Of a DNA stretch of 64,000 nucleotides, positions 24,312 to 42,512 are shown one piece after another. The translations under genes were made by a program, and so were the position numbers. Within the stretch, counting starts at the first letter, position 1; the number at the start of each line of letters is the position of its first letter. This stretch comes from Candidatus Omnitrophota bacterium (GTDB lineage: Bacteria; Omnitrophota; Gorgyraeia; Zapsychrales; Fredricksoniimonadaceae). The stretch spans positions 134,994 through 198,993 of the forward strand of contig JBGAJA010000001.1 of the NCBI GenBank assembly GCA_044225175.1, read 5' to 3'. The notes under the pieces were generated by a model. It made no database searches. It was given only the letters and a program-made list of their open reading frames with translations, and was not told the DNA's origin.

Positions 24312-26165
24312 ATGACATTTCTTAGGGTCGATAAGGAAATTTATATTGCTTTCTTAGCCATCCTTGGGATTAGTCTATATTTATTTTTCCATTTCTTTTT
24401 AGGTGTTCCCAAAGATATAGCCAATTGGCCATTGTGGATCACTCTTTTTCTAGGCGGGATCCCGTTGGTTTGGGATCTTTTGCTTAAACTTTCCAAACGT
24501 CAATTCGGTTCTGATCTTTTAGCCGGGATTTCAATTATTACCTCTGTTTTATTGGGTGAATATTTAGCTGGAACCCTGGTGGTTTTAATGCTTTCCGGCG
24601 GGGAGGCTTTAGAAAGTTTTGCTGTGCGACGCGCCTCATCGGTGTTAGCTGCATTAGCCAAACGTATGCCGAATAAAGCACACCGTAAAAGCGCGGGAGC
24701 TGTGATTGATATTACAATTGATCAGATCAATATCGGTGATGAGTTGGTCATTTTTCCACATGAGATTTGTCCAGTTGATGGTCAAGTAATTGAAGGTCAT
24801 GGTGCCATGGATGAATCGTATTTAACTGGAGAGCCGTTTATTATTTCAAAGGTGGCTGGATCAAATGTTCTTTCCGGTGCTATTAATGGTGAAGCTTCTC
24901 TGACGATTGCTGCAACAAAACGCGCGATGGATTCACGCTATGCCAAAATTATGGAAGTCATGCGTGCAGCTGAAGAGAAACGTCCGAGTATTCAACGTTT
25001 AGGCGATCAACTAGGCGCGATCTATACGCCGGTGGCCTTAATATTGGCGATTGGTGCTTGGATTTTTAGCCATGATCCCATGAGGTTCTTATCAGTTTTA
25101 GTTATTGCGACACCTTGCCCATTGTTGATTGCCATTCCGGTTGCTGTTATAGGATCAATTTCTTTGAGTGCCCGTCGTGGGATTATCATCCGAAATCCAG
25201 CAATTCTTGAACAAATTGACCGCTGCCGCACCATTATCTTAGATAAGACAGGGACATTGACCTATGGGAGGCCGACTGTTACGGAAGTCAATTGTTTCAA
25301 TGGTTTTGATAAGTCCAAAGTGTTGAAATATGCATCAAGTTTAGAACAGTATTCCAAACATCCTTTAGCGCATTCAATTGTTGAGGCAGCCCAAAAGGCA
25401 GGTGCTGGTTTTATAGAAGTAGGCCAAATCAGTGAGGCAGCAGGGGAAGGTTTACGAGGCGTTGTTGATGGGCATACAGTTTTAATCACCAGTCGCGGTA
25501 AATTGATTAAACAAGGTAAGGAGTCATGGTTTAAGGATATTCCACAAATGGGCGGTTTGGAATGTGTACTCGTCATTGACAATAAAATGGCTGGGCACTT
25601 TCATTTTCACGATGAACCTCGTTTAGAGGGGAAATCGTTTATTAAACATTTAAGCCCTCGGCATAAAATCAATCGAGTCATGATTGTTTCTGGTGACCGT
25701 GAGAGTGAAGTGAAATATTTGGCTGATAAAGTAGGCATTGATATGGTTTATGCTGGTAAAAGCCCCGAGGAGAAAATCGAGATTGTTCGTAAGGAAACTC
25801 TTTCTGGGCCGACTATTTATTTGGGTGACGGCATCAATGATGCGCCTGCACTTACCGCCGCGACGGTCGGAATTGCATTCGGCCAAAATAGTGATATTAC
25901 TGCGGAAGCCGCTGGGGCTGTGATCATGGAGAGTTCCTTAGCCAAGGTGGATGAGTTAATGCATATTAGCCGTAGGATGAGGACAATTGCACTTCAGAGC
26001 GCGCTGGGAGGGATGGCCTTGTCAATTTTTGGAATGTTGCTGGCAGCTGGGGGACATTTGACACCTGTAGCGGGTGCCATAGGTCAGGAAATTATTGATG
26101 TCATTGCTGTTCTTAATGCTTTACGCGCAGCTTTTCCTCCTAAAGACCTGACGGATTTTGCTTAA
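24312..26165 (+). CDS. P1B-type heavy-metal translocating P-type ATPase (no N-terminal metal-binding domain)
   Basis: CPx motif (ATPCPL) in TM6, DKTGTLT phosphorylation site, GDGINDAPAL hinge motif. Confidence 0.8.
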   Translation: MTFLRVDKEIYIAFLAILGISLYLFFHFFLGVPKDIANWPLWITLFLGGIPLVWDLLLKLSKRQFGSDLLAGISIITSVLLGEYLAGTLVVLMLSGGEALESFAVRRASSVLAALAKRMPNKAHRKSAGAVIDITIDQINIGDELVIFPHEICPVDGQVIEGHGAMDESYLTGEPFIISKVAGSNVLSGAINGEASLTIAATKRAMDSRYAKIMEVMRAAEEKRPSIQRLGDQLGAIYTPVALILAIGAWIFSHDPMRFLSVLVIATPCPLLIAIPVAVIGSISLSARRGIIIRNPAILEQIDRCRTIILDKTGTLTYGRPTVTEVNCFNGFDKSKVLKYASSLEQYSKHPLAHSIVEAAQKAGAGFIEVGQISEAAGEGLRGVVDGHTVLITSRGKLIKQGKESWFKDIPQMGGLECVLVIDNKMAGHFHFHDEPRLEGKSFIKHLSPRHKINRVMIVSGDRESEVKYLADKVGIDMVYAGKSPEEKIEIVRKETLSGPTIYLGDGINDAPALTAATVGIAFGQNSDITAEAAGAVIMESSLAKVDELMHISRRMRTIALQSALGGMALSIFGMLLAAGGHLTPVAGAIGQEIIDVIAVLNALRAAFPPKDLTDFA

Positions 26166-26496
26166 ATCTTAAAGAATGCTATCTGGTCCAAGATTCAATA
26201 TTAAAATTTCTTTATAATTGCTTTAAACTTCATGATTTGCTTCACTTATTCCCAAAGAATCAATTGAAAAAATCCATATACAAAAAGATAATCTATTGGA
26301 ATTTATCGTCGATAAACCACAGATTTTTCCTTTAACCTGTTTGACTCTATTTTAACCACTTTTGCGTAAAAGTGGACACTTTTTGGACACCAAATGGTTT
26401 CTAAATTTCATATTAGATATCTAGAACCTTGTTGCTCTTTTATTTTTATTTGATAGTATAAATTTGGGTCTGGAGAATTTTTCCAGAGGGTGTTTT

Positions 26497-26543
26497 GATG
26501 GTCGGGCCGCCATCTGATTGAAAAATCAGATGGCTTTTTTTTT
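26497..26543 (+). promoter_or_regulatory. Conserved leader element, copy 1. GATGG-N8-CCATC competes with an 11 bp hairpin GCCATCTGATT/AATCAGATGGC followed by a 9-T run; candidate attenuator immediately upstream of the nhaD-like start
   Basis: Shares the GATGGTCGGGCCGCCATCTGRTTGAAAAAYCAG core with copy 2 at 29428. The stem differs by a compensatory change (A-T to G-C). The U-tract abuts the RBS. Confidence 0.4.
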
Positions 26544-26556
26544 GGAAAGGAAGTGT

Positions 26557-27831
26557 ATGTTTGAAGCTTTGATTGTGAGTGTATTCTTGTTTGGATATGC
26601 GGCAATGGCGTTTGAACATAAGATTGGGGTTAATAAGGCTGCTTCGGCACTTTTAACAGCAGTTGTTTGCTGGGTTCTTTTGGCTTTGCAACATATGAAT
26701 CTTTCTAGTGGGAATGGTCATCAAATTGTAGAAAGTTTATCCCATCATTTAGAGGAGGCTGCGCAGATTGTTTTCTTCCTAATTGGAGCTATGACTATTG
26801 TGCAGTTAATGGAAACGCATGGAGGATTTCAGGTTGTTACAAAAATGCTTCAGATCAAGAATAAGAAACTGCTTTTGTGGGTGATTTCTTTGATCACTTT
26901 TTTTCTTTCACCTGTTTTAGATAATTTAACAACATCAATTGTTATGGTTTCGCTGATGCATCGTTTAATAAGCGATAAAGATGATCGTCTTATTTTTAGC
27001 AGTATGGTTATTATTGCTGCTAATGCGGGAGGCGCTTGGTCGCCGATTGGTGATGTGACAACAACAATGCTGTGGATTGGAGGGCAGGTAAGCGCTTTAA
27101 GGATCGTGCAGATGCTTTTTGTCCCAAGCTTGATTGCTATGCTTATACCCTTAATATATTTTACTTTGATGATGAAAAAAGGAGAGGTTTTGAAGTTTGC
27201 TCCTTTTGCTGATGAATGGCAGGTTGGTACCAAAAGAGTGTTCTATTTAGGATTATGTGCGCTCATTTTTGTTCCAATTTTTAAGGCGGTTACAGGCCTT
27301 CCCCCATTTATTGGGGTGCTTTTGGGGCTGGGTTTGGTATGGATGGTGACTGACCTTATTCATAATGAAGATAGGGATTACTTAAAAGTTCCAAAAGCAT
27401 TAAATAAGATTGATATGTCAAGCATACTATTCTTTCTTGCTATTTTATTAGCTGTGGCTGCTCTGGATACTTGCGGGGCTTTAAAGAGTATGGCTATATG
27501 GATGGATCGGACAATCATTAATAAAGATCTTATTGCAACTACACTGGGGCTTTTATCTGCAATTATAGACAATGTTCCGTTAACTGCGGCGACGATGGGG
27601 ATGTATGATTTAACACATTATCCGATGGATTCAAAATTATGGGAACTTTTAGCTTTTACTGTTGGAACGGGAGGAAGTGTCCTCATTATAGGGTCAGCGG
27701 CAGGTGTTGTGGTGATGGGGATTGAGAAGATAAGTTTTCTTTGGTATCTAAAAAAGGTGTCATTGCCCGTTTTATTAGGTTATTTTGCTGGCGTTGGTGC
27801 GTATTTATTAATTTATCGAATTATTGCTTAA
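26557..27831 (+). CDS. ArsB/NhaD-superfamily ion permease (NhaD-like Na+/H+ antiporter)
   Basis: Polytopic membrane protein with the PF03600-like repeated topology. ORF-track start 26518 (TTG) lies inside the leader hairpin. The ATG at 26557 with GGAAAGGAAG upstream is the more likely start. Confidence 0.55.
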   Translation: MFEALIVSVFLFGYAAMAFEHKIGVNKAASALLTAVVCWVLLALQHMNLSSGNGHQIVESLSHHLEEAAQIVFFLIGAMTIVQLMETHGGFQVVTKMLQIKNKKLLLWVISLITFFLSPVLDNLTTSIVMVSLMHRLISDKDDRLIFSSMVIIAANAGGAWSPIGDVTTTMLWIGGQVSALRIVQMLFVPSLIAMLIPLIYFTLMMKKGEVLKFAPFADEWQVGTKRVFYLGLCALIFVPIFKAVTGLPPFIGVLLGLGLVWMVTDLIHNEDRDYLKVPKALNKIDMSSILFFLAILLAVAALDTCGALKSMAIWMDRTIINKDLIATTLGLLSAIIDNVPLTAATMGMYDLTHYPMDSKLWELLAFTVGTGGSVLIIGSAAGVVVMGIEKISFLWYLKKVSLPVLLGYFAGVGAYLLIYRIIA

Positions 27832-27853: not shown

Positions 27854-28687
27854 TTGAAAATAAATAAAAGCTTACCAATTAAGTTAATAAGCGCAACAAG
27901 CATAGCCATTGCGATTTGTTTTATTGTTCAACCTTCTTTTCTAGTTATGGCTCAACCAATTTTCTTATCATTAGAGGAAATTGAGCAAATCGGAGTTAAG
28001 GTTTTTAAAAATGAATGTGCAGGTAAAAATGAATGTCTTTTGGAGTGGAATGAAGGAGAGGGTTTTCTCTCTTTAGGGATAGGGCATTTTATTTGGTATC
28101 CTCAAGGAGTTACAGAACCTTTTGAAGAGAGTTTTCCAGTCCTGATTAAATATTTAAAAGAAAAGGGAATAAAACTTCCAGCCTGGCTAGATCAAGAACC
28201 TTTTCCAACATGTCCGTGGATAACAAGAGAAGATTTCATAAAGAACAAATCTGGTTTTAAAGCACAGGAACTATATAAATTATTAAGCGAGACTAAGTCA
28301 TTGCAAAGCGCTTTTTTAGTATCACGTTTGGATGTGATTTTATCTTTAATATTAGAAAACGTTGATGATAGGGATGATTTTAGAATTAAGAATAAATTTA
28401 AAAGACTTGCCAGTACTCCTCAAGGAATTTTTGTATTGGTCGATTATGCTAATTTTAAAGGTCTAGGGATTTCTTTAGGTGAGCGTTATCAAGAGCAGGG
28501 TTGGGGGCTTGTACAGGTTTTATCTAGAATGAAAGATGATGAACAAGAATTAAATCCTGTCGAAGAATTTGTAAAAGAGGCTCAAAAAATTTTGACAGAA
28601 CGTGTTAATAATGCTCCTGTAGGAAGGCAGGAGCAAAAATGGTTGCTTGGTTGGCAAAACAGGGTTAATTCGTATTTAAAAGAATAA
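27854..28687 (+). CDS. secreted hypothetical protein (signal peptide)
   Basis: N-terminal hydrophobic signal, then MAQP. No recognised family. Confidence 0.4.
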   Translation: MKINKSLPIKLISATSIAIAICFIVQPSFLVMAQPIFLSLEEIEQIGVKVFKNECAGKNECLLEWNEGEGFLSLGIGHFIWYPQGVTEPFEESFPVLIKYLKEKGIKLPAWLDQEPFPTCPWITREDFIKNKSGFKAQELYKLLSETKSLQSAFLVSRLDVILSLILENVDDRDDFRIKNKFKRLASTPQGIFVLVDYANFKGLGISLGERYQEQGWGLVQVLSRMKDDEQELNPVEEFVKEAQKILTERVNNAPVGRQEQKWLLGWQNRVNSYLKE

Positions 28688-28756
28688 TTAGCAATCAAAT
28701 TTATTTTTAATGGGAAATCTAAATTGACAAGAACGTTCTTTTATATATACTCGTGA

Positions 28757-28772
28757 GTAAGCATTTGCTTAC
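28757..28772 (+). promoter_or_regulatory. Perfect palindrome GTAAGCA-TT-TGCTTAC, candidate TetR operator overlapping the tetR promoter
   Basis: 16 bp inverted repeat 20 nt upstream of the tetR-family start. TetR regulators commonly autoregulate via such operators. Confidence 0.35.
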
Positions 28773-28793
28773 ATTTATTTGATAGAGGACAGA

Positions 28794-29387
28794 ATGTCAA
28801 AATTAAGAACTGTTCGTCAACAAAAGATAATTGATGCGTCACGTAGAATTATTATTCTTAAGGGGATGGAAAAGTTAACCGTAAGAGAGATTGCTAAAGA
28901 GCTCGGAATCACGGACGGGGCTTTATACAGACATTTTAAGGGAAAAAAACAAATTATAAGTCTTTTAATTGATGATATTGAAGAAACTCTATTAAGTGCA
29001 ATTGATGAAGCAGCTTCAACAACAGAGAATCCTTTAAAAAAGTTGGAAAATGTATTCTGGTCTCATCTTTCTTATGTAGAAAAACGTAAAGGAGTTTCGT
29101 TTATTGTTATTAACAATATTCTGGGTATGAAAGATAAATATCTTCAAAACAAAATTTATAGCCTTATTAATCAATATTTAAAAAGAATAAAGAAAATTTT
29201 AAACGAAGGAATTAAAAAAGGTCTTTTTCGAAAGAGTCTGGATATTGAGGCAGCCAGTACAGCATTTTTTGGAATCATTCAATCTAAAGTAACGCTCTGG
29301 GGATTGAGCGATTATAAATATTCAATAGGAAATGAACATATGGCAGGGTCATTTGATTTTTTTGAGAAAGGAATTCTAGCAAAATAA
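28794..29387 (+). CDS. TetR/AcrR-family transcriptional regulator
   Basis: N-terminal HTH (LTVREIAKELGITDGALYRHF). ATG at 28794 with a GAGGA SD is preferred over the track's TTG at 28779. Confidence 0.75.
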   Translation: MSKLRTVRQQKIIDASRRIIILKGMEKLTVREIAKELGITDGALYRHFKGKKQIISLLIDDIEETLLSAIDEAASTTENPLKKLENVFWSHLSYVEKRKGVSFIVINNILGMKDKYLQNKIYSLINQYLKRIKKILNEGIKKGLFRKSLDIEAASTAFFGIIQSKVTLWGLSDYKYSIGNEHMAGSFDFFEKGILAK

Positions 29388-29427
29388 TTTAATAAAGGGT
29401 CCATAAGGTTTGCCTTATGGAGGATTA

Positions 29428-29474
29428 GATGGTCGGGCCGCCATCTGGTTGAAAAACCAGGGGGTGGCCTTTTT
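29428..29474 (+). promoter_or_regulatory. Conserved leader element, copy 2 (GATGG...CCATC, hairpin CCATCTGGTT/AACCAGGGGGTGG, then TTTTT), 22 nt upstream of the otsA start
   Basis: See copy 1. Hairpin plus U-tract sits between the tetR stop and the otsA RBS, leaving no room for an independent promoter. Confidence 0.4.
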
Positions 29475-29495
29475 AGTTGTAAAAGGAGAATTTTA

Positions 29496-31742
29496 ATGAA
29501 GATAACTCTACGTTTAATTTTATATTTAGTATCTATAGTTGCTTTAGTAGCTTTTGGGTTTTCATTTTGGCAGGCACGTCAGGAAGATTTCCGTCTCAGG
29601 AATGAATTAGAAAAAAGAGCTAATTTTATTGCTGATAGTTTGAGGGTTTCAGTTGAACCATTATTATCTATTGAAGGAGGAAATCAGAGTCTACAGAAGA
29701 TTGTAGATAGATTTTCTAATCGTGAAAAATTGGTTGGTATTGATATACATGACATTAGAGGAAATTTGATTGTTTCCTCTTCAGGAATTCGACCTAAGAT
29801 TGAAGCTAATTCTCAAGTTTTATCTGAAGTGATTCAAGAGATTGAACGGCTAGGCTCTGAGCGAGGTAGTTTTGTTAATCTTGGTAAAGAATCTTTATAT
29901 GCCTATGCAGTACCTTTAACCACAGCAGAGAAACCAACCCATGTTTTAACTCTCTTTTATGATGTTGATTATATTCAAGATCGAGTACAGAGACTTTTAA
30001 TTAATAGTTTTTGGAGAGCGTTGATACAGGCTTTTTTAATATCATTGACGACATTTATTATTATTTATTTTAATGTCATGGCACCTATTAGAAAAACGAC
30101 AGATTGGATTAAAAGAATCCGTAGAGGAGATAGAGTTAAGCCATTAGATGGAAAAGGGCAGCTGCTATTAGGTCCTTTGGCACAAGAAATTTCTCAAATG
30201 GCTAAGAGTTTAGAAATGGCCAGGGCTGCAGCTGAAGAAGAAGCTCGGTTAAGATATTCATCTGAGTCTCGATGGACTCCAGAGCGATTAAAAGAATTTG
30301 TTCGTTTGAAATTGGAGGATCGTCCGCTTTTTGTGGTTTCTAATCGGGAACCCTATATGCATATTAAAAATAAAGACAAAATTGAATGTATTGTTCCAGC
30401 TAGTGGGCTGGTTACTGCTTTGGAACCTATACTTAATGCCTGTGGTGGAACCTGGATTGCTCAAGGAAGTGGAAGCGGGGATCGAGAAACTGTCGATAAA
30501 AATGACAGGTTAAGAGTTCCTCCAGAAGAACCAAAATATACCTTACGGCGGGTTTGGGTGGATAAAGATTTAGAAGAAGGTTTCTATTCTGGATTTTCTA
30601 ATGAAGGTCTTTGGCCTCTATGTCATATTGCTCATACCAGGCCCATTTTTAGAGCCAAAGATTGGGAAGATTACAAAGCTGTTAACCAGAAATTTGCTCA
30701 GGCAGTTGCCCAAGAGATCGATGGAATATCAAATCCGTTTGTTTTAATTCAAGATTACCACTTTGCTCTTTTACCTGGTTTGATCAAAAAACTCAAAGCC
30801 GATGCAAAGATAGCAATATTCTGGCACATTCCCTGGCCTAATCCTGAATCATTTGGTATATGTCCCTGGCGAAAAGAGCTTCTGCAAGGAATGTTAGGGG
30901 CTGACATTATTGGCTTTCATACACAGTTTCACTGTAATAATTTTATTGAGTCTGTTGATAGATTTTTGGAGTCCCGTATTGATTATGAGCATTTTACAAT
31001 CAATCGTGAAGGACATACAACATTCATAAAACCATTCCCTATTAGTATTAATTTTGAATCAGCCAATGAAAGTGCTACTAAAGCAGAAGAGAGCAAGGCA
31101 GCGCTTTTAAAGAGCTATGGTATTCAAGCTAAATTCTTGGGGGTGGGTGTCGATCGTTTGGATTATACGAAGGGTATTTTGGAAAGATTTCGTGCGGTTG
31201 AAAGTTTGATGGAGCTTGATCAATCATACATAGGAAAATTTACTTTTGTAGAACTTGGTGCCCCTAGTCGAACTATGATTCCTAAGTATAAAGAATTTAT
31301 CGATGAAATAGTCAAAGAAGTTGAACGGATTAATACAAAATTTAAGACAAAAAATTGGCAGCCGATTCTTTTGTTGATGAAGCACCATAGTCATAAGGAT
31401 ATTTTACCTTTTTATAAAGCAGCAGATGTGTGCATGGTTACTTCTTTACACGATGGAATGAATTTAGTAGCTAAAGAGTTCATTTCTGCTCGCAGCGATG
31501 AACAGGGTGTTTTAATTCTGAGTCAGTTTACTGGTGCTGCTAGAGAATTGCAGGATGCTTTAATTGTCAATCCTTACGACGTAGGCCAGACATCACGAGC
31601 CATCAAATGTGCTTTGGAAATGCCAAAAGAAGATCAAGCAAAGCGCATGAAACAAATGAGAGAAATAGTTAAAAGTAATAATATTTATCGATGGGCAGGA
31701 GAATTAGTTGGCCAATTGACACAAGTTCGTACAGAGAGTTAG
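29496..31742 (+). CDS. otsA: membrane-anchored sensor-domain/HAMP-like linker fused to trehalose-6-phosphate synthase (GT20, OtsA)
   Basis: Residues 1-260: TM helix, about 150 aa extracytoplasmic domain, second TM, HAMP-like amphipathic linker. Residues about 270-748: GT20 OtsA core (VVSNREPY..., GFFLHIPWP-like motifs). Confidence 0.8.
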   Translation: MKITLRLILYLVSIVALVAFGFSFWQARQEDFRLRNELEKRANFIADSLRVSVEPLLSIEGGNQSLQKIVDRFSNREKLVGIDIHDIRGNLIVSSSGIRPKIEANSQVLSEVIQEIERLGSERGSFVNLGKESLYAYAVPLTTAEKPTHVLTLFYDVDYIQDRVQRLLINSFWRALIQAFLISLTTFIIIYFNVMAPIRKTTDWIKRIRRGDRVKPLDGKGQLLLGPLAQEISQMAKSLEMARAAAEEEARLRYSSESRWTPERLKEFVRLKLEDRPLFVVSNREPYMHIKNKDKIECIVPASGLVTALEPILNACGGTWIAQGSGSGDRETVDKNDRLRVPPEEPKYTLRRVWVDKDLEEGFYSGFSNEGLWPLCHIAHTRPIFRAKDWEDYKAVNQKFAQAVAQEIDGISNPFVLIQDYHFALLPGLIKKLKADAKIAIFWHIPWPNPESFGICPWRKELLQGMLGADIIGFHTQFHCNNFIESVDRFLESRIDYEHFTINREGHTTFIKPFPISINFESANESATKAEESKAALLKSYGIQAKFLGVGVDRLDYTKGILERFRAVESLMELDQSYIGKFTFVELGAPSRTMIPKYKEFIDEIVKEVERINTKFKTKNWQPILLLMKHHSHKDILPFYKAADVCMVTSLHDGMNLVAKEFISARSDEQGVLILSQFTGAARELQDALIVNPYDVGQTSRAIKCALEMPKEDQAKRMKQMREIVKSNNIYRWAGELVGQLTQVRTES

Positions 31743-31751
31743 GAGGGTATT

Positions 31752-32846
31752 ATGACAAACTTAATTGAAAATTTAAGAATAATTCAGGGAACGGTTATTT
31801 TTAAGAATACGATACAGGATTATTGCGTTGCATTGGTCGCCTTTTTAATTTTATTTTATGGTCTATCTATCTTTAAAAGAATAATTGTTAAGCATCTAGG
31901 GAAATTGGCTTCTAAAACGAGTTCTGATTTTGATGACTTTATTGTCAGGCTGCTTTCTCAAATTGGTTGGCCTTCTTTTAGTGTTGTGTCGTTGTTTCTA
32001 GCTACCGCTTCTCTTGAAATGCCTTCAATGGTTCATTCAATGATTAAATATGTAATGGTTTTTGTTCTGACCATCCGATCCATTTTATTACTACAAGAAA
32101 TAATTCAGTATGGTGTTAATAAAACATTGCTTAGGCGTATGGGGGCTGATAATTCCTCATCCAAGGCGATGATTAATAGTGTTGTATGGGTCATCAAATG
32201 GGCAATATGGATATTAGGGGCTGTTTTCATTTTGGATAATTTGGGGGTCAATATATCTTCCTTAGTTGCTGGAATTGGAATCGGTGGTATTGCAGTTGCA
32301 ATGGCTTCTCAAGCTGTATTGGGGGATGCTTTTAGTGCACTATCCATTTATATGGATAGGCCATTTGAAATTGGTGATTTTATCATCATTGATGATTGTA
32401 TGGGTACTGTTGAGCATATTGGAGTTAAAACAACCCGTATCAGAAGTCTTTCGGGGGAACAGTTAGTTCTTTCGAATTCAGATTTAACAAAGAGCCGTGT
32501 TAAAAATTATAAACGCATGCAAACACGACGTATTGCCTTCAAGATTGGTGTTACTTATCAAACTTCTCTGGAAAAGGTCGAAAGAATTCCACAAATAATT
32601 AAGGGTTTATTAGAGAAAGCTGAAGTCAAAATAGACCGCGTGCATTTTCAGAGTTTTGGAGATTTTTCTCTTGTTTATGAGATTGTCTACTATGTTTTAA
32701 GTGCGGATTACAACGTTTATATGGATAAGCAGCAGGCTATTAATCTTGCTATTATGCAAGAGTTTGAGCGCGAGGGAATTGAATTTGCATATCCGACCCA
32801 GACTCTTTTTATAAGAAATGAAATGGCAAATAATCTATCGAGGTGA
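31752..32846 (+). CDS. MscS-family mechanosensitive channel
   Basis: Conserved TM3/pore region LVAGIGIGGIAVAMASQAVLGDAFSALSIYMDRPFEIGDFI and a beta-domain C-terminus. Confidence 0.8.
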   Translation: MTNLIENLRIIQGTVIFKNTIQDYCVALVAFLILFYGLSIFKRIIVKHLGKLASKTSSDFDDFIVRLLSQIGWPSFSVVSLFLATASLEMPSMVHSMIKYVMVFVLTIRSILLLQEIIQYGVNKTLLRRMGADNSSSKAMINSVVWVIKWAIWILGAVFILDNLGVNISSLVAGIGIGGIAVAMASQAVLGDAFSALSIYMDRPFEIGDFIIIDDCMGTVEHIGVKTTRIRSLSGEQLVLSNSDLTKSRVKNYKRMQTRRIAFKIGVTYQTSLEKVERIPQIIKGLLEKAEVKIDRVHFQSFGDFSLVYEIVYYVLSADYNVYMDKQQAINLAIMQEFEREGIEFAYPTQTLFIRNEMANNLSR

Positions 32847-33648
32847 AAATTGGATAATGGAACATCTTTTTAAAAAATTAGATACATTAAAAAAACAATT
32901 ACATAAGAGTCAAGCTGCACTTTTTCTAGATTACGATGGCACTTTAACTCCGATTGTTGAGAGGCCTGAGTTAGCCATTCTTTCTTCTAAAACAAAGAAC
33001 CAATTAAAGAAATTAGCTAAAAACGAACGGTTTAAAGTTTTTATTATTAGTGGAAGAGCTTTAGCTGATGTAAAAAGGTTGGTTGGTGTTAGTAATATTG
33101 AATACGTAGGTAATCATGGCTTTGAAATTCAAGGGGCAGATTTAGATTTTGGGGATTTTTCTTTTTTGCGATTTAGAGAAATCTTGGAATATTTAAAATG
33201 GGAGATTACCAAAGAACTTGTCTTTTTTAAAGGAGCTTTTGTAGAGGATAAGGGTCTTGGTTTAAGTGTGCACTATCGTTTGCTTAATTTGAAGGATGAA
33301 TCAATTTTTAATACTTTTCTTAAGGTTATTACTCGTGAATTTTCTTCAAGAGGTGAAATTCGAATTACTCAAGGTAAAAAAGTATTTGAAATTCAAGCGC
33401 CATTGGATTGGGATAAAGGTAAAGCAGTCGCTTTGATTCTTAAAAATAAAGAATTAATCCATGGAAAACATAAAGTCCTTCCGATTTATATAGGGGATGA
33501 TGTTACAGATGAAGATGCTTTTTCAGTTTTGAAAAATACCGGGATTACAGTTTTTGTAGGTGAGTTGAGGCCGTCTCAGGCGCAATATTACTTAAATAAT
33601 GCTAATGAAGTTGTCGAATTCTTAAAATATATAAATGAGGTTAAATAA
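32818..33648 (+). CDS. otsB: trehalose-6-phosphate phosphatase (HAD-IIB)
   Basis: DYDGTL motif (LFLDYDGTLTPIV), HAD motifs II-IV, GDDVTDEDAF. Alternative start ATG at 32857. Confidence 0.8.
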   Translation: MKWQIIYRGENWIMEHLFKKLDTLKKQLHKSQAALFLDYDGTLTPIVERPELAILSSKTKNQLKKLAKNERFKVFIISGRALADVKRLVGVSNIEYVGNHGFEIQGADLDFGDFSFLRFREILEYLKWEITKELVFFKGAFVEDKGLGLSVHYRLLNLKDESIFNTFLKVITREFSSRGEIRITQGKKVFEIQAPLDWDKGKAVALILKNKELIHGKHKVLPIYIGDDVTDEDAFSVLKNTGITVFVGELRPSQAQYYLNNANEVVEFLKYINEVK

Positions 33649-35481
33649 ATGAAACAATTAAAGAATCTTAACTATGCCATTATTGGTAATTGCACGAGCG
33701 CTGCCTTGATTAATGATGATTGTTCGATAGATTGGCTATGTCTACCTTTTTTCGATTCTTCTTCCATATTTGCTCGAATTCTTGACGACCAAAAAGGAGG
33801 ATATTTTAAAATAGGGGCTAAAGACATTATCAGTGTTGAACAGACTTATTTGTATCATACGCCTATTTTGAAAACGGTCTTTACGACCAAGGATGGCATA
33901 TTTGAGGTGCGTGATTATATGCCTCGATTTGATACTAATGATGTTCAGATTTATTGTCCAGCTGAGATCCACCGAAGTATTTATTTAGTTCAAGGTAGTC
34001 CGAAGGTGCTTATTGAATTTAATCCGAGGCCTAATTATGGCTTAAGTGAAGCAAAATTGACGCCTTTTCCTGAGTATTTAAAAATTACATCTTTAGAAGG
34101 AGAATATAATAGTTACTATCTTTACACAAATTTCAATATGAGTGATCTTGTTGATGGTAAAGAAATTGAACTTAAAGAGTCCGCTTATTTTCTTTTGTCC
34201 TATCATGAAAAAATTGAACCAATAACCAAAGAGAGAATGTTTTTGGAGTACGAGAAAACAAAGAGTTATTGGCTGTATTGGGCTTATCGAACGGAAGTTC
34301 CTGAAAAGTACAAGGAATTGGTAATTCGCTCTATTATTACGCTCAAACTTCTCATGTTTCAGCGAACTGGAGCAGTCATTGCAGCGCCAACTACCTCTTT
34401 GCCAGAAATCATAGGGAAAGAACGTAATTGGGACTACCGTTACTGCTGGGTGAGAGATGCGTCTATGATTATTGATTTGTTTGCCCGTATGGGGCATTCC
34501 AAAACTTCTTTAAGATATATTAATTTTATTCTTAACCGAATGCGGCTTAAAGATTACAAAATATCTGTTATGTATGGAATTAATGGGGAAGAGAATTTGG
34601 AGGAAAGAACCCTTGATCATTTAAGTGGGTATGAAGGTTCCCTTCCGGTACGAATAGGTAATGCTGCTTACAATCAGAAACAAAATGATGTCTATGGGCA
34701 ATTAATTGAGACAATTTACACTTCATTTGTGGTTGATTTTAGAAATGATTTAATATTGAATGAAGAAACCTGGACAGTGGTTCGCTCATTAGCAAAGAAA
34801 GTGCAAGAAATATGGAAAGAAGCTGATTGCGGTATATGGGAACGCCGGGGGCCAATGCAACACTTTGTACATTCTAAATTAATGAGTTGGGTTGCCATGG
34901 ATCGTGCAGCTAAGATTGCTAAATTTATCGGTAAAAAACAATATGTTGCTAAGTATTTATCAGTAGCTAATGAAATCAAGGAAGATATTCTTAAGAACGG
35001 ATGGGATGAAGAGTTAAAAAGTTTTGTGATGTATTATGGGTCTAAAGAATTGGATGCATCTAATCTTTTGATGCTTCATTATGGTTTTTTAGATAAGAGT
35101 GATCCGCGTATCATCAATACAGTGCTTAATACGTATAAAGAACTAGCTAAAGATGGTCTTATCTTACGTTATAAAGCTGCTGATGAATTTGGGGTCCCTC
35201 AAAATGCATTTATTGTATGCACCTTCTGGATGATTAATTCTTTGTATCTTATTGGAAAAGAAAAGGAAGCTCGCATAATGCTTGAGAAAATTGTATCTCA
35301 TGCCAACAGAGTTGGGCTTTTTTCTGAAGATATCGAAACAGATACTGGGCGTTTAACTGGCAATTTTCCCCAAGGGTACTCACACCTAGCTTTTATCCAA
35401 ACAGTCTTTTTGTTAGAAACACAGTATGATTGGAGTGATGCAGTTAAATCTGGGCGTTCTTTATTTAAAGCTCCTGATTAA
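33649..35481 (+). CDS. GH15-family glycoside hydrolase (glucoamylase/trehalase-like)
   Basis: WDYRYCWVRDAS (GH15 WxRD motif) and GIWERRG (catalytic acid region). Start abuts the otsB stop. Confidence 0.8.
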   Translation: MKQLKNLNYAIIGNCTSAALINDDCSIDWLCLPFFDSSSIFARILDDQKGGYFKIGAKDIISVEQTYLYHTPILKTVFTTKDGIFEVRDYMPRFDTNDVQIYCPAEIHRSIYLVQGSPKVLIEFNPRPNYGLSEAKLTPFPEYLKITSLEGEYNSYYLYTNFNMSDLVDGKEIELKESAYFLLSYHEKIEPITKERMFLEYEKTKSYWLYWAYRTEVPEKYKELVIRSIITLKLLMFQRTGAVIAAPTTSLPEIIGKERNWDYRYCWVRDASMIIDLFARMGHSKTSLRYINFILNRMRLKDYKISVMYGINGEENLEERTLDHLSGYEGSLPVRIGNAAYNQKQNDVYGQLIETIYTSFVVDFRNDLILNEETWTVVRSLAKKVQEIWKEADCGIWERRGPMQHFVHSKLMSWVAMDRAAKIAKFIGKKQYVAKYLSVANEIKEDILKNGWDEELKSFVMYYGSKELDASNLLMLHYGFLDKSDPRIINTVLNTYKELAKDGLILRYKAADEFGVPQNAFIVCTFWMINSLYLIGKEKEARIMLEKIVSHANRVGLFSEDIETDTGRLTGNFPQGYSHLAFIQTVFLLETQYDWSDAVKSGRSLFKAPD

Positions 35482-36483: not shown

Positions 36484-39400
36484 ATGAGATACCCCATATC
36501 ATCTAAATATTGGCAAAAGGCCATTAGTTTATTCGTCATTGTTACGTTTATTTTGACTGGTTTTAATATTCCTTTGGCTCAAGCTCAAGAATTTCATTTA
36601 CCAAAGCCTGGGGTAATGGTTCATTTAAGTCCTGAATTTAATCCGCCGATTTTAAAAGGTATTAAAGTCCATGCCGATAATCCTTTCAGATTTGAATTCA
36701 TTTTGGACAAAGGGGATAGCAATAAAAATAACGATCAGCTAAAAGAGGAATCTTCTAAGCTGATTAAATATTTTTTAGCTTCTTTAACCATCCCTGAGAA
36801 AGACCTTTGGGTCAATTTAAGCCCTTATGAAAAAGATCGTATTATTCCTAATAGTTTTGGTTTAACCGAAATGGGTCGTGATTTGTTGGCGCAAGATTAT
36901 ATGCTCAAACAGATAACAGCTTCTTTGATCTACCCTGAAGATGAAATAGGAAAGAAATTTTGGAAACGCATATACGAAGAATCTTCTAAGAAATATGGAA
37001 CAACTAATATTCCAGTGAACACATTTAATAAGGTTTGGATTGTTCCTGAGAAAGCTGTTGTGTATGAGAACGCTAAGGCGGGGACAGCATATGTGGTGGA
37101 ATCTAGGCTCAAGGTTATGTTAGAGCAAGATTACCTTTCATTACAAAAGCATGAAGGCGAAACACAATCTCAGGTCAAGGAAACTAATCAATTAGGTAGT
37201 CAAGTTATCCGTGAGATTGTTATTCCTGAACTTACCAAAGAGGTTAATGAAAATAAAAATTTTACCCAGCTTCGCCAAGTCTACAATTCTTTAATTCTTG
37301 CAACGTGGTATAAGAAGAAAATAAAAGACAGTATTCTGTCTCAAGTGTATGCCGATAAAAATAAGGTAATGGGAGTAAACATTGATAATCATAAAGAGAA
37401 AGAAAAGATTTATCAGCAATACTTACAAGCTTTCAAGAAGGGTGTCTATAGCTACATTAAAGAGGAGCAAGACCATTTAACTGGGCAACCTATTCCAAGG
37501 AAATATTTTTCAGGAGGAGCAACATTTTTTGGATTAGCGGATAAGGCAATGGTAATCATGCCAGTAGGTGGAAATGTTGTTATTGATAATGCCCCTAATT
37601 CCATGTTAACTGTTTCAACTGCTCTCAATGTTATTGGAGCGGCTGAAGAAAGTAGACCATTTAAAACTCAAATACCTCAGAATCCAGAAATGGATGGTAT
37701 GTTCGAAAGAGGAAGAAGTTTAATACAAGAAAGTTTAAACCAGGAATTAGTGTATCTAAGACTTTTCCGAGGGAATAAAGTGTTAGCTATGAATGACATT
37801 GAAATTCCTTCCGCCTTAAAAGGAATGATCGGAGAAACAGGGAAGGTTGTTCAAATTTATGATAGCGATCTTCTTGCTTCTATGCGTAGAGAAGCTCCAG
37901 ATGTCATGGAAGAAGAAACAGCAAAATCGTTTTTGGTTACTTTTAACCAAAATGGAGATGTTTTTAAAATCTATTTAATCGCGCCACATAATATGGCATA
38001 TGCTTTAGATGAATTAGAGACTGAGAATCAATTAGCCAAACAAATTAAAGTTATGGTAGTAAAAATATTAAGTACTCAAGCACAGGCTAACAAGATACAA
38101 ACAAGTTTAGACCAGGTAAAGAATCAGGACTTACACACAAGGTATGGAAATATTCTTATTCCTTTTGGAGTTGAACTGAATTTAGTCCAAAGTATATTGA
38201 AACATCCTATAGCAAGGAATTTATTGTCTGGACTCCAGGGGAGGGTTTCTTTACTGAGCGCTGGTCAGGTTATTTACGTATCAGGTTCTCAGGTTGGTTA
38301 TGATGACTATGAGGAATCTTTGTTTCAAGAAAGTCAGATTGATGAGGAATTAATTGCTCATCTTACACAAATGGTAGTTATGGATCAGAAAGAAAAGCCC
38401 TTCGACTACCGATCACCGAAAGAAAAAAGAAATCATTGGCTAAGAGGACTAGCTGATTCAAATAAATTGATTACAGGAGCATTGCAAGGGCAAAGAATAA
38501 ATGGAGTATTTTATAATCCTAAACTTTATGACCAAGGAGAACAAGGTGTTTTAGGGACAATCGTTCACGAAATAGTTCATCTTTATTTGAAAGAGGCGCT
38601 AGCGCAAGTAAGGCCAATATTATTGAGAATAAAGGCGCGCCATGGAGATTTTATTGAATCTTTAAGTAATCCCAATGGTTTATTTTTTAATCTTCAATTA
38701 TCTGATGAAGATCAAAAAGATTTACGAGAGGTGGGCATTTTACCTAGAGTTGTGGGGGATGAGGCAATGGTGGCAGCTTCCGAATTTTATAGTAGAACAT
38801 TGCAGCCGACAATTGGGACCACATGGAGTGAATTAGATGAAAGTATTCAAAAAATGATTGGAAGGCATGTCGATGATCCTGATTTAATTGAAATGGTGAA
38901 AGCATCGAACAATGAAGCTAAGAACTCATTGGCCTGGATTGTACGTGTTGTTACACAAGAAGTGCTTTTTAAGGCTATTTATGAGTCTATGGCAGGAGAT
39001 TTTGATCGTGAACAATTCGAAAAACAATTATTTAAGATAGGGAAACTTCACGGAGAACATGCAGCTACTTTCTTTGCTATCTTAAATGTAATTTCTCCCT
39101 CGAAAAGACCAAAGATAGAAGATATCAGCAAAATAATGATAGAGGAATCTAATCATAATCTAGCCACGGGGCGGCATTATTATGTCGCTTTAAAAACACT
39201 TACTTTTCTTGTTACAAAAGATAATTTTAAAGAGGTCTGGGAGCAAATAGGTGAGCTTTTGGATTCTGTTTTTGAGGAAGGTACAGATTATTTTTTAAAT
39301 GTTACGCTACCGTCATTTAAGGGCTTAATAAAAACCCTGGCCGATTTAAAGAAGTTTTATACAATTTTTAGAAAAGCCATTGATGAAGATGAACTCGAGG

Positions 39401-42007: not shown

Positions 42008-42184
42008 ATCTATGAAATCCTTCTTTACAGTCCATAATAATTCTGGTATAAAATCCTCTCTTTACCGTTCTTTTCAAGTTATAATTTTTGCTTCAGCCAA
42101 AGGCTGATCCGCCTTTGGCGGAGGCTTTACAGTTAAATAAATTTACGCTGGCTTAGCTCAGTTGGTAGAGCAGCTGATTTGTAA
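42008..42184 (+). repeat. 177 bp direct repeat, copy 2 (includes the 5-prime 38 nt of the intact tRNA-Thr); attR-like
   Basis: See copy 1. Begins 7 nt after the IS right end. Confidence 0.8.
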
Positions 42185-42219
42185 TCAGCAGGTCGGGGGT
42201 TCGAAGCCTCTAGCCAGCT
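42147..42219 (+). tRNA. tRNA-Thr (anticodon UGU)
   Basis: Cloverleaf: 7 bp acceptor GCTGGCT/AGCCAGC, D-arm GCTC-AGTTGGTA-GAGC, anticodon stem GCTGA/TCAGC with loop TTTGTAA, T-arm GGGGG-TTCGAAG-CCTCT. No encoded CCA. Confidence 0.85.
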
Positions 42220-42289
42220 TTATTTTTGAGATTTGAAATTAGAGATTGGATTATCCAATTTCGAATTTCTAATATCAAATTTCTATAAT

Positions 42290-42370
42290 GGGCAGTTACC
42301 CAAGTGGTCAACGGGGGCAGATTGTAAATCTGCTGCACACGCTTCGGAGGTTCGAATCCTTCACTGCCCA
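42290..42370 (+). tRNA. tRNA-Tyr (anticodon GUA), class II with long variable arm
   Basis: Acceptor GGGCAGT/ACTGCCC, anticodon stem-loop GCAGA-TTGTAAA-TCTGC, T-loop TTCGAAT. Closely resembles E. coli tRNA-Tyr. Confidence 0.85.
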
Positions 42371-42438
42371 TTCTACTTCGCCCTTAAATTTTCATGTAAG
42401 GGCTTCGTAGAATGAGTTCTTTATAGTTAGCGAGTTAT

Positions 42439-42512
42439 GCGGGAGTAGTTCAGTGGTAGAACTCTAGCCTTCCAAGCTAGTAGCGAGGGTTCGATTCTCT
42501 CCTCCCGCTCCA
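42439..42512 (+). tRNA. tRNA-Gly (anticodon UCC), CCA encoded
   Basis: Acceptor GCGGGAG/CTCCCGC, anticodon stem-loop CTAGC-CTTCCAA-GCTAG, T-loop TTCGATT, 3-prime TCCA. Confidence 0.85.

Follow-up and report, generated by a model that had tools for sequence, protein, structure and literature searches.

The analysed window of 64,000 nucleotides carries an operon whose first gene joins a sensor-kinase-type input (Cache, transmembrane segment, HAMP) straight onto a GT20 trehalose-6-phosphate synthase domain. We confirmed that this junction is real and conserved. Directly upstream lies an nhaA-I class riboswitch with a terminator. Our preferred interpretation, to which we give a probability of roughly 0.55, is that this is a trehalose operon for salt or osmotic stress under two tiers of control, one at the RNA and one at the protein level. 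If correct, salt may act on both RNA and protein in the trehalose pathway of a bacterium from an uncultured phylum, most likely Omnitrophota.

Table 1. Features of the operon and its upstream region (positions in the window)
Feature	Position	Strand	Basis
Second nhaA-I aptamer with overlapping terminator, ahead of NhaD gene	26466..26543	+	Rfam
NhaD-type Na+/H+ antiporter	26557..27831	+	NhaD_1 152.6 bits (cut-off 80); TIGR00775 E 3e-119
TetR-family regulator, immediately upstream of synthase region	28779..29387	+	Pfam TetR_N, TetR_C_4
nhaA-I (Li+-I/Na+-II class) aptamer, tetR-otsA intergenic, 50 nt 5' of otsA start	29397..29446	+	Rfam RF03057
Terminator-type expression platform	29436..29474	+	Stem GGCCGCC-A-TCTGGTT/GAAA/AACCAGG-G-GGTGGCC, then TTTTT
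RBS AAGGAG, 7 nt 5' of ATG 29496	29483..29488	+	Direct sequence reading
Receptor-type trehalose-6-phosphate synthase, 748 aa (TM1, sCache, TM2, HAMP, linker, GT20)	29496..31742	+	ORF, Pfam
TM1, residues 7-25	29514..29570	+	KD19 = 2.35; helix in AF2 model
Periplasmic single-Cache/PDC (extracytoplasmic PAS-like), WalK-like, residues 26-175	29571..30020	+	
TM2, residues 176-194	30021..30077	+	KD19 = 1.99
HAMP, residues 195-241: AS1 (P197...G211), connector, AS2 (P227, E231, L239)	30078..30218	+	
Signalling linker, residues 242-272, A-R-x-A-A-E-E-E-A-R-L-R ... S-E-S-x-W-T-P-E-R-L-K-E	30219..30311	+	Conservation
GT20 (OtsA) catalytic domain, cytoplasmic	30312..31742	+	Pfam PF00982 E 5e-118
MscS-family mechanosensitive channel, YnaI-like, 364 aa, about 5 hydrophobic segments	31752..32846	+	Pfam, hydropathy
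Trehalose-6-phosphate phosphatase OtsB	32857..33648	+	TIGR00685 169 bits (cut-off 68); Pfam Trehalose_PPase
GH15 glycoside hydrolase with trehalase-like N-terminal domain, putative trehalase	33649..35481	+	Pfam

The sensor-fused synthase

The original prediction, made from the DNA letters, placed the open reading frames correctly, and the synthase frame is indeed single and uninterrupted. It gave the N-terminal extension 260 residues; the extension is there, but since Pfam GT20 covers residues 279-742 its length is about 275. The proposed order of transmembrane segment, periplasmic domain, second transmembrane segment and HAMP-like region agrees with hydropathy, with the AF2 model and with the NCBIfam WalK model, which aligns to residues 4-251 (E 2e-8); K2 and R6 mark the cytoplasmic side of TM1. 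By sequence the HAMP match of this protein is weak: Pfam gives E 3e-3 and 18.2 bits, where the gathering score is 25. In the homologue P0283 it scores 26.5 bits, over the Pfam cut-off, and when a profile of residues 188-262 was compared with PDB, chains of the Af1503 HAMP made up five of the seven top sequence matches (E 0.16-0.8, none significant individually). The AF2 models are of monomers, and linker residues 248-258 have confidence below 50 in the full-length one. A Pfam scan found no HisKA or HATPase domain in the synthase, in line with the proposal that the input is joined to GT20 without phosphorelay parts.

The GT20 part matches OtsA/TPS chains in PDB at E 1e-59 to 4e-73. Ten catalytic or substrate-binding residues were checked: R284, G304, Y364, W373, H444, R554, K559, R592, D653 and E661 correspond to R9, G22, Y76, W85, H154, R262, K267, R300, D361 and E369 of the Escherichia coli enzyme, and all ten are kept in 67 of 67 family members. 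Judging from these residues, the domain is apparently active. Its score lies under the NCBIfam equivalog cut-off, as does that of the GH15 protein (archaeal TreH1, the best NCBIfam match, 421 bits against 820), so the substrate specificity of both is not certain.

Rather than an artefact, the fusion represents a whole family. With the motif [ED][SA][LRV]WT[PS][ED]RLK we retrieved it from at least 154 species-level MAGs among the GTDB species genomes, in Omnitrophota, Elusimicrobiota, Nitrospirota, Verrucomicrobiota, Acidobacteriota and other phyla. Full-length homologues fall into more than 120 clusters (56-91% identity, 100% coverage). An N-terminal profile search with E <= 1e-30 gave 191 clusters when grouped at 50% identity, and nine of ten longer matches scanned contain GT20. 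All these proteins are annotated as "trehalose-6-phosphate synthase" and nothing more. Our literature search found no paper on a sensor-OtsA fusion, as had been supposed, and none in which HAMP has a glycosyltransferase for its output. The Cache-HAMP-GT20 receptor enzyme appears to be undescribed so far.

Conservation is uneven along the protein. Averaged over positions, the commonest residue among 67 family members has a frequency of 0.77 in the linker, 0.75 in GT20 and 0.48 in the periplasmic domain. Ten of the 31 linker positions are at least 95% conserved, and P197, W204, R209, G211 and E231 of HAMP are invariant. Few positions of the periplasmic domain reach 90% (E30, F73, G81, W168, R174), and family conservation revealed no recognisable ligand pocket or ligand-binding motif there. 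The linker matches the catalytic domain in conservation, which argues for coupling over mere tethering.

The riboswitch and its terminator

The original prediction was incomplete in one important respect, as it missed the nhaA-I riboswitch and terminator. The aptamer matches all 55 positions of RF03057 and scores 48.2 bits, the gathering score being 37. The terminator takes its 5' arm from aptamer helix P2, of which it reuses the loop and the 3' arm, and the minimum free energy fold consists of P1 plus the terminator hairpin (z = -4.7 versus shuffles). The hairpin is kept with compensatory changes in the related loci L003, L014 and L019. By pattern scan, 26 related loci have the aptamer ahead of their fusion gene, and Rfam confirmed all 11 that were tested; the aptamer precedes the fusion gene in other phyla as well. 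An analogous overlapping hairpin and T-run accompany 29 of 42 distinct aptamer instances.

The second aptamer of the window (26466-26515, 49.4 bits against the same gathering score) overlaps a terminator with its stem at 26509-26534 and its T-run at 26535-26543 (-17.1 kcal/mol). The probable NhaD start is ATG 26557; the mechanical ORF start, 26518, falls inside this terminator.

The association of this riboswitch with otsA is already known: the genes listed for the class include otsA (16), nhaD (6) and mscS (3), and the published RNAs are ON switches that raise expression with Li+, terminator-bearing variants answering Na+ (PMC9646797). The window aptamers resemble them in their full-length matches above the gathering score. 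They differ in that both combine terminator platforms with a U at the position that decides specificity; this U is typical of Li+-I, and published Na+-II variants have C there. In that study terminator platforms belong solely to deltaproteobacterial Na+-II variants with C, whereas the present set has them in Omnitrophota, Elusimicrobiota and further phyla. With riboswitch and terminator directly upstream of the operon, sensing would take place at least in part through RNA.

Operon genes and neighbours

The proposed identities of the three downstream genes are borne out. The channel gene has Pfam MS_channel_1st, 2nd and 3rd, its best PDB matches being YnaI (E 6e-28); since YnaI is of the low-conductance type, release of trehalose through this channel is putative. 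The hydrolase exceeds the Pfam cut-offs of GH15 (E 1.5e-66) as well as TREH_N (E 2.6e-17). The stop/start overlaps that had been described around mscS are not necessary. A 9-nt gap with GGAGG separates the otsA stop (31742) from the mscS ATG, a 10-nt gap separates the mscS stop (32846) from the otsB ATG, and otsB and the GH15 gene are directly adjacent. The longest ORF for otsB starts at 32818, and solely this upstream ATG creates a 29-nt overlap; the probable start, ATG 32857, has an RBS (GAGGTG) and coincides in alignment with the point where the L003 homologue begins.

Nor is the operon a fixed, self-contained module for sensing, making, releasing and degrading trehalose. OtsB, or an LMW phosphatase in its stead, is nearly constant across fusion loci. 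MscS occurs in 13 of 80 related loci, in varying position, and GH15 in 13 of 60, its place being taken in 32 of 60 by DUF5752 and a TreT-like glycosyltransferase. Recurrent neighbours are genes of ion and osmotic homeostasis (MscS, NhaD, Na+/H+ exchangers, ClC, MgtE, Mrp). A TetR gene is also found upstream in L003, L013, L019 and L020.

Proposed mechanism and its alternatives

By analogy with published members of the class, transcription from the tetR side would run into a riboswitch for monovalent cations. Without ligand the terminator would form; once Li+ or Na+ binds, the terminator 5' arm would stay in helix P2 and RNA polymerase would continue into otsA-mscS-otsB-GH15. The same type of switch would govern the NhaD gene 3 kb upstream. 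The synthase itself may be a dimeric transmembrane receptor enzyme, in which the WalK-like Cache domain, or the TM/HAMP unit itself, answers an extracytoplasmic or membrane cue. A HAMP four-helix bundle would pass the signal through the helical linker, whose end lies 12 residues ahead of strand beta-1 with the glucose-6-phosphate-binding Arg284. This could switch either the binding of the acceptor or the closing of the two GT-B lobes on or off without a phosphorelay. We infer such direct signal control of catalysis, which had also been proposed originally, from the architecture. OtsB would dephosphorylate trehalose-6-phosphate; at the end of stress the GH15 enzyme would hydrolyse trehalose, and on downshock the channel would relieve turgor.

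Several other explanations can be considered. That assembly or annotation had fused a sensor ORF to a separate otsA was a negligible prospect, and it is refuted: nothing was found in its favour, full-length homologues of about 750 residues lie on many independent contigs and assemblies, no in-frame stop separates the two parts, and in every one of the 72 testable loci the parts adjoin and share one reading frame. A serious though doubtful alternative is that the N-terminal module is a membrane anchor and dimerisation scaffold only, placing trehalose synthesis at the membrane (for lipid protection, say, or closeness to channels and transporters), all regulation being transcriptional through riboswitch and TetR. 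The weakly conserved periplasmic domain with no recognised ligand-binding motif, the sub-threshold HAMP score and a stress input already supplied by the riboswitch fit such an anchor. However, an anchor needs neither a folded Cache domain of 150 residues, kept across several phyla, nor invariant HAMP Pro, Gly and Glu, nor a linker conserved like an active site, and the layout is that of signal-transducing receptors from end to end. Inside-out signalling of the LapD kind is very unlikely; in that case the GT20 domain, according to its state (substrate, trehalose-6-phosphate or trehalose level), would act through HAMP on a periplasmic domain that binds or releases a periplasmic partner.

The nature of the stress is a separate matter. 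The operon might mainly serve against lithium toxicity, with canonical Li+-I aptamers and with trehalose offsetting Li+-inhibited sugar-phosphate metabolism, a possibility raised for otsA in PMC9646797, and the U in both aptamers suits it. We think this unlikely: in the same study terminator platforms go with Na+-responsive variants and a C54U mutant answers Li+, Na+ and NH4+, while Li+ is scarce in most habitats. NhaD, MscS, Na+/H+ exchangers and a compatible-solute pathway suit general salt stress.

Relation to known systems

Control of E. coli OtsA is transcriptional (RpoS, osmotic induction). The window system shares with E. coli OtsBA the GT20 fold (34% identity), all the checked residues, a HAD-type phosphatase partner and an osmoprotective role. 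E. coli OtsA is a soluble protein of 474 residues without an input domain, in contrast to the TM-Cache-TM-HAMP-linker module, the otsA...otsB order and the riboswitch found here. Sensor histidine kinases (WalK, for instance), chemoreceptors and HAMP-containing adenylyl or diguanylate cyclases have the same TM1, Cache/PDC, TM2, HAMP and helical linker; their outputs are kinases, methyl-accepting domains or nucleotide cyclases, whereas the output here, a GT-B glycosyltransferase, belongs to central compatible-solute metabolism.

An MscS gene within a trehalose operon is already known from archaea. In the msc-gt-tpsp operon of Thermoproteus tenax, an arrangement termed unique to Thermoproteales, the channel gene is co-transcribed with those for trehalose-6-phosphate synthesis, and the authors' model has trehalose made upon upshock and let out through the channel upon downshock (PMC3634074). 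Sister loci of the window similarly have a GT4 (TreT-like) gene beside otsA/otsB. In T. tenax, TPS and TPP are fused into a soluble enzyme that GT binding activates, and the operon is without membrane sensor, riboswitch or trehalase.

GH15 trehalases as such are also known, for example the mycobacterial, Thermoplasma and Sulfolobus TreH enzymes. The window protein has the TREH_N beta-sandwich and GH15 (alpha/alpha)6 domain of such trehalases, which are reviewed in PMC10969515. A structure search found no solved close relative; from family and context, the enzyme would act on trehalose.

There are other examples in which a physical stimulus switches compatible-solute supply at the protein level: salt-activated GgpS and the osmosensing ProP, BetP and OpuA. 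Sensing in these proteins relies on cytoplasmic electrostatics or on TM and C-terminal domains of their own, and none is known to have a Cache-HAMP receptor module. GgpS is itself a GT20 enzyme, and its model TIGR02398 is the third-best NCBIfam match of the window synthase.

Architecture of the fusion protein

The GT20 enzyme encoded by the fusion gene is preceded by a membrane receptor part. Hydropathy of the N-terminal 275 residues gives exactly two TM segments, at residues 7-25 and 176-194. Positive charges lie N-terminal of TM1 and C-terminal of TM2, and this distribution places residues 26-175 in the periplasm and the enzyme in the cytoplasm. An AF2 model (monomer only, built from a 19-sequence alignment, pLDDT 80.8) begins with a long helix that leads into an alpha/beta domain (helix 63-74, five strands, helix 99-119). 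A continuous TM2/AS1 helix follows (158-209), then a 16-residue connector (loop 210-225), a helix at 226-255 and a short helix at 262-272, just ahead of GT20 strand beta-1 at residue 278. The periplasmic part has the features of a single Cache/PDC fold, namely a long N-terminal helix, an antiparallel sheet between the TMs and likeness to known sensor domains. At the sequence level, the WalK extracellular domain was recovered by the family profile (E 2.4e-4). The NCBIfam WalK model aligns with residues 4-251 (E 2e-8) over model positions 8-258, which are its input part only. Pfam and NCBIfam found neither HisKA/DHp nor HATPase_c in the window protein. It thus differs from a two-component sensor histidine kinase in having the input part without these domains.

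The original prediction of two TM segments, a periplasmic domain and a HAMP-like linker is supported by hydropathy, by the AF2 model and by three residues that are 100% conserved in the family: P197 at the start of AS1, G211 at its end and E231 at the start of AS2. The layout is that of a HAMP domain (helix-connector-helix, about 50 aa, right after the last TM), and Af1503 HAMP domains head the PDB matches for a profile of residues 188-262, aligned end to end. However, the window HAMP falls short of the Pfam cut-off of 25, with a score of 18.2 bits (E 3e-3). Five of 19 relatives give a HAMP match at E < 0.01, and one homologue, P0283, exceeds the cut-off with 26.5 bits.

Conservation was expressed as the frequency of the most common residue, averaged over each region, in 67 full-length members that are 49-81% identical to the window protein. 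It is 0.77 in the linker (residues 242-272), 0.75 in the GT20 domain, 0.58-0.63 in the TM segments and HAMP helices (AS1, AS2) and 0.48 in the periplasmic domain. The segment joining GT20 to HAMP is therefore strongly constrained. Only E30, F73, G81, W168 and R174 are conserved at 90% or more in the periplasmic domain, where no known ligand motif was recognised. That the Cache domain is so poorly conserved speaks against a single small ligand for all members.

The catalytic domain is GT20: PF00982 matches residues 279-742 with 395 bits (cut-off 32.5, E 5e-118). The NCBIfam OtsA equivalog TIGR02400 is not reached (421.9 bits against 564.85), but it is still the best single-function match of the protein, with GgpS behind at 302 bits. 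In E. coli OtsA, we take R9, G22, Y76, W85, H154, R262, K267, R300, D361 and E369 to be the residues for catalysis and for binding of glucose-6-phosphate and UDP-glucose. This list follows the crystal-structure literature and leaves out W40, which did not map to a Trp in the numbering used. The window protein keeps all of the listed residues, as do 67 of 67 family members, so the GT20 domain looks active. Its putative product is trehalose-6-phosphate, made from NDP-glucose and glucose-6-phosphate, and the adjoining OtsB supports this assignment. Four cysteines of the GT20 domain (C376, C456, C480 and C646) are conserved in 66-67 of the 67 members, but E. coli OtsA lacks them. Two of the four lie within the motifs WPLCHIAH and FHCNNF, and H377 and H380 are further residues of note. 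The four cysteines may be a redox or metal site.

The fusion is a widespread family

Among the matches listed there are at least 120 full-length homologues of about 750 aa, with 56-91% identity and 100% coverage. The named ones carry only the label trehalose-6-phosphate synthase, and most come from Candidatus Omnitrophota MAGs. When the N-terminal profile was searched exhaustively, 191 clusters formed at 50% identity had E <= 1e-30, and nine of the ten longer matches scanned contain GT20. A homologue search with the N-terminus only returned 22 proteins, mostly fragments, and understates the family size in comparison with the full-length and exhaustive profile searches. Scanning one genome per GTDB species for the linker motif yielded 154 relatives in Omnitrophota, Elusimicrobiota, Nitrospirota, Verrucomicrobiota, Acidobacteriota, Eisenbacteria and Ignavibacteria/Bacteroidota, as well as in single Gammaproteobacteria and Deltaproteobacteria MAGs. 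The search for the same fusion in other genomes, which had been suggested, was thus positive. A mis-joined ORF or an assembly artefact is ruled out by the uninterrupted ORF, by the many full-length homologues and by the 72 of 72 loci with both halves on the contig, in all of which the sensor and GT20 parts are contiguous in a single frame.

One database start in the family deserves a comment. That of the homologue P0025 (L003, the source of a close homologue, 7001-7075) is 25 codons too early and reads through the riboswitch and the terminator (MVGPPSGLKTSGGLF...). Several family members of 775-814 aa may share such a mis-annotated N-terminus.

The operon and its relatives

The ORFs of window 29496-35481 are four closely spaced genes in one direction, which together with their surroundings are listed in the table.

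Features of the window around the trehalose operon
Feature	Position	Strand	Remarks
Heavy-metal (P1B-type) P-type ATPase gene	24312-26165		upstream of the nhaD riboswitch
nhaA-I aptamer, nhaD leader	26466-26515	+	Rfam 49.4 bits, gathering score 37
Terminator after nhaD aptamer	26509-26543	+	GC-rich hairpin and T-run
nhaD	26557-27831	+	probable start ATG 26557
277-aa ORF	27854-28687		between nhaD and tetR
Promoter and palindrome	28724-28772		just 5' of tetR
tetR	28779-29387	+	
nhaA-I aptamer, otsA leader	29397-29446	+	Rfam 48.2 bits, gathering score 37; 50 nt before otsA start
Terminator after otsA aptamer	29436-29474	+	GC-rich hairpin and T-run
Sensor-fused otsA	29496-31742	+	748 aa; AAGGAG 7 nt ahead of ATG
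mscS	31752-32846	+	364 aa; all three MscS domains (Pfam)
otsB	32818/32857-33648	+	Pfam/NCBIfam; above TIGR00685 equivalog cut-off
GH15 gene	33649-35481	+	610 aa; GH15 and trehalase-like N-terminal domain TREH_N (Pfam)
1356-aa ORF	36484-40554		3' of operon
Three clustered tRNA genes	42147-42509		farther downstream

Both the ORFs and the Pfam/NCBIfam matches bear out the predicted MscS gene between otsA and otsB and the GH15 enzyme after them. The stop/start overlaps that were proposed are unnecessary: otsA and mscS are 9 nt apart, mscS and otsB are 10 nt apart if otsB starts at ATG 32857, and otsB and the GH15 gene are directly adjacent. ATG 32857 has the RBS GAGGTG and lines up with the first codon of the closest homologue. 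A simple promoter/terminator scan found no terminator 3' of the GH15 gene.

The MscS domains PF21088, PF00924 and PF21082 (TM2/3, beta-domain and C-terminal domain) each score above the Pfam cut-off. Since the closest solved relatives are YnaI channels, permeation of trehalose through this MscS is uncertain. OtsB matches TIGR00685 with 169.1 bits (cut-off 68.05). The GH15 protein exceeds the Pfam cut-offs for both of its domains and is short of the NCBIfam equivalog cut-offs for TreH1 (421 against 820) and TreH2 (380 against 1000). A sequence search of the PDB gave no match for it at E <= 1e-3. GH15 trehalases are already known (review PMC10969515).

Genes downstream were counted in 60 loci with at least 3 kb 3' of the fusion gene. 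OtsB comes next in 51, and in 5 a low-molecular-weight phosphatase takes its place. GH15 occurs in 13 and a TreT-like GT4 glycosyltransferase in 32, in 28 of these with DUF5752; the GT4 gene and GH15 were found together in none of the 60. MscS is present in 13 of 80 loci. Seven of these, all closely related to the window, have it between otsA and otsB. In four, from lineages farther removed (Eisenbacteria and Nitrospirota among them), it lies directly upstream, and in two it is nearby. NhaD, Na+/H+ exchangers, ClC, MgtE and Mrp are other repeated neighbours. From these counts, the constant core is the sensor-fused OtsA and a phosphatase, and MscS and GH15/TreT-like proteins are accessory. The self-contained module that had been proposed for sensing, making, releasing and degrading trehalose is therefore constant in its synthetic part but not in its release and degradation parts.

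In loci L010-L089, DUF5752, for which we know of no function, is always accompanied by the TreT-like gene. GH15 on the one hand and DUF5752 with the TreT-like GT4 on the other may be alternative trehalose-turnover modules. The OtsB slot is filled by an LMWPc/ArsC-like phosphatase of 125-133 aa in L033, L035, L045, L046, L051, L064 and L008, mostly from Elusimicrobiota; this protein may be a non-homologous T6P phosphatase.

Two RNAs of the nhaA-I riboswitch class

The original prediction considered a sensor in the protein and missed two nhaA-I RNAs (RF03057) that score above the Rfam gathering score, one in the otsA leader and one in the nhaD leader. Each spans model positions 1-55 of 55. The antiporter gene behind the second aptamer scores above the cut-off of the NCBIfam model NhaD_1. 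In both copies the 3' arm of P2 doubles as the 5' arm of an intrinsic terminator, an expression platform that fits ligand-induced activation. The MFE fold of the otsA leader consists of P1 and the terminator (z = -4.7). These terminators were not flagged by the simple promoter/terminator scan. The mechanical start of the nhaD ORF, TTG 26518, falls within the terminator, so the true start is probably the downstream ATG.

In 26 related loci an aptamer sits within the 400 nt that precede the fusion gene, and about 13 others have one on the same strand at a greater upstream distance; Rfam confirmed it in 11 of 11 loci tested. The layout with two riboswitches and nhaD, tetR and otsA is repeated in L003. 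Overlapping intrinsic terminators were seen in 29 of 42 aptamer instances, including both window copies.

In the literature, the Na+-I riboswitch is the DUF1646 RNA, and the nhaA-I RNAs make up Li+-I and, in rare cases, Na+-II. Most nhaA-I RNAs are Li+-activated ON switches, and the rare variants that answer to Na+ have a terminator platform and C at position 54 (PMC9646797). Terminator platforms were reported only in Deltaproteobacteria, with C at this position, and a C54U mutant responded to Li+, Na+ and NH4+ (PMC9646797). When the construct of that paper is mapped onto our aptamers, position 54 (D. propionicus numbering) is the U of GGUCGGG. All 42 distinct aptamers (window and L001-L087) have U there, and the Na+-II marker C is absent. 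The window copies thus share the terminator platform with Na+-II but differ in having U instead of C. This slightly extends the class to terminator-type RNAs with U54 outside Deltaproteobacteria.

Genes reported with nhaA-I include otsA (16 of 944), nhaD (6), 'citrate transporter' (5) and mscS (3), and the link to otsA was termed intriguing and possibly osmotic (PMC9646797). That gene list is without accessions; the published association probably concerns the sensor-OtsA fusion family.

Discussion

No description of a sensor-OtsA or Cache-HAMP-GT20 fusion was found in the literature searched, which lacked most subscription journals, and database entries carry a generic name. This agrees with the suggestion that the fusion is undescribed. 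Omnitrophota genome papers mention 'trehalose synthesis' only. Precedents exist for every accessory: the OtsA/OtsB pathway, GH15 trehalases, MscS in a trehalose operon and the association of nhaA-I with otsA. The MscS precedent is the msc-gt-tpsp operon of Thermoproteus tenax, with the same model of release on downshock (PMC3634074). Both operons have an MscS gene, but the window lacks the GT4 activator gene, although a TreT-like GT4 is present in its sister loci, and its OtsA and OtsB are separate rather than a fused TPS-TPP.

The directly established features of the protein are its architecture, topology, conservation pattern and intact active site; those of the RNA are an aptamer overlapped by a terminator, and the recurrence of this element. 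From them a model can be inferred. Cation binding would stabilise P2 and block termination, and nhaD and the trehalose operon would be turned on jointly as cytoplasmic Li+/Na+ climbs. The enzyme would be a receptor that works as a dimer: HAMP would pass a cue from the periplasm or the membrane through the invariant linker, and this signal would gate either the binding of the acceptor or the closure of the lobes. Arg284 lies 12 residues beyond the end of the linker and is the equivalent of E. coli Arg9, which we take to bind the phosphate of glucose-6-phosphate. OtsB would finish the synthesis, GH15 would clear trehalose afterwards and MscS would vent solutes on downshock. In its furthest reading, the family would be the first HAMP-coupled TM receptor with a GT-B glycosyltransferase as output. 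It would be a one-protein osmotic or ionic sensor that switches compatible-solute synthesis allosterically, layered under a monovalent-cation riboswitch. Trehalose would then be made only if the cytoplasmic cation load (read by RNA) and an envelope or external cue (read by protein) agree. We give this reading a probability of roughly 0.4.

Other suggestions can be made. The N-terminal part might be merely a membrane tether. The periplasmic domain is the least conserved region, as could be said for a tether, while the HAMP-GT20 linker is conserved as highly as the enzyme itself, and we consider a tether unlikely. A lithium-specific role would suit the Li+-I class and the U at position 54, which is also the base of the mutant with a broader cation response; we regard such a role as improbable. 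Finally, the signal might run inside-out, as in LapD, but we would be surprised if inside-out signalling were the answer.

If true, allosteric switching by the receptor would offer a directly testable coupling of signal to metabolism without a kinase, a response regulator or a second messenger, and a glycosyltransferase would join the short list of HAMP outputs. At the protein level, the matching of compatible-solute supply to external osmolarity is, to our knowledge, well understood for transporters but not for biosynthetic enzymes. The family occurs widely in phyla represented almost entirely by MAGs, Omnitrophota and Elusimicrobiota among them, and would thus give a concrete physiological handle on these organisms. 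The locus is also a clean natural setting for the published and unexplained association of otsA with the Li+-I riboswitch, and its paired aptamers, in front of nhaD and otsA, would be useful for deciding between Li+ and Na+ specificity.

Further observations on the surroundings

The region just 5' of tetR contains a strong sigma-70-like promoter (TTGACA-16-TATACT, 11 of 12 matches), directly followed by the perfect palindrome GTAAGCA-TT-TGCTTAC, which may be a TetR operator for autoregulation. Since the otsA riboswitch begins 10 nt past the tetR stop, otsA may be transcribed from the tetR promoter. The 277-aa ORF has no Pfam or NCBIfam match and the 1356-aa ORF no Pfam match. Two related loci have riboswitches of other classes a few kb 5' of the fusion gene, c-di-GMP-I in L024 (733-810) and 2'-dG-II in L033 (1622-1739).
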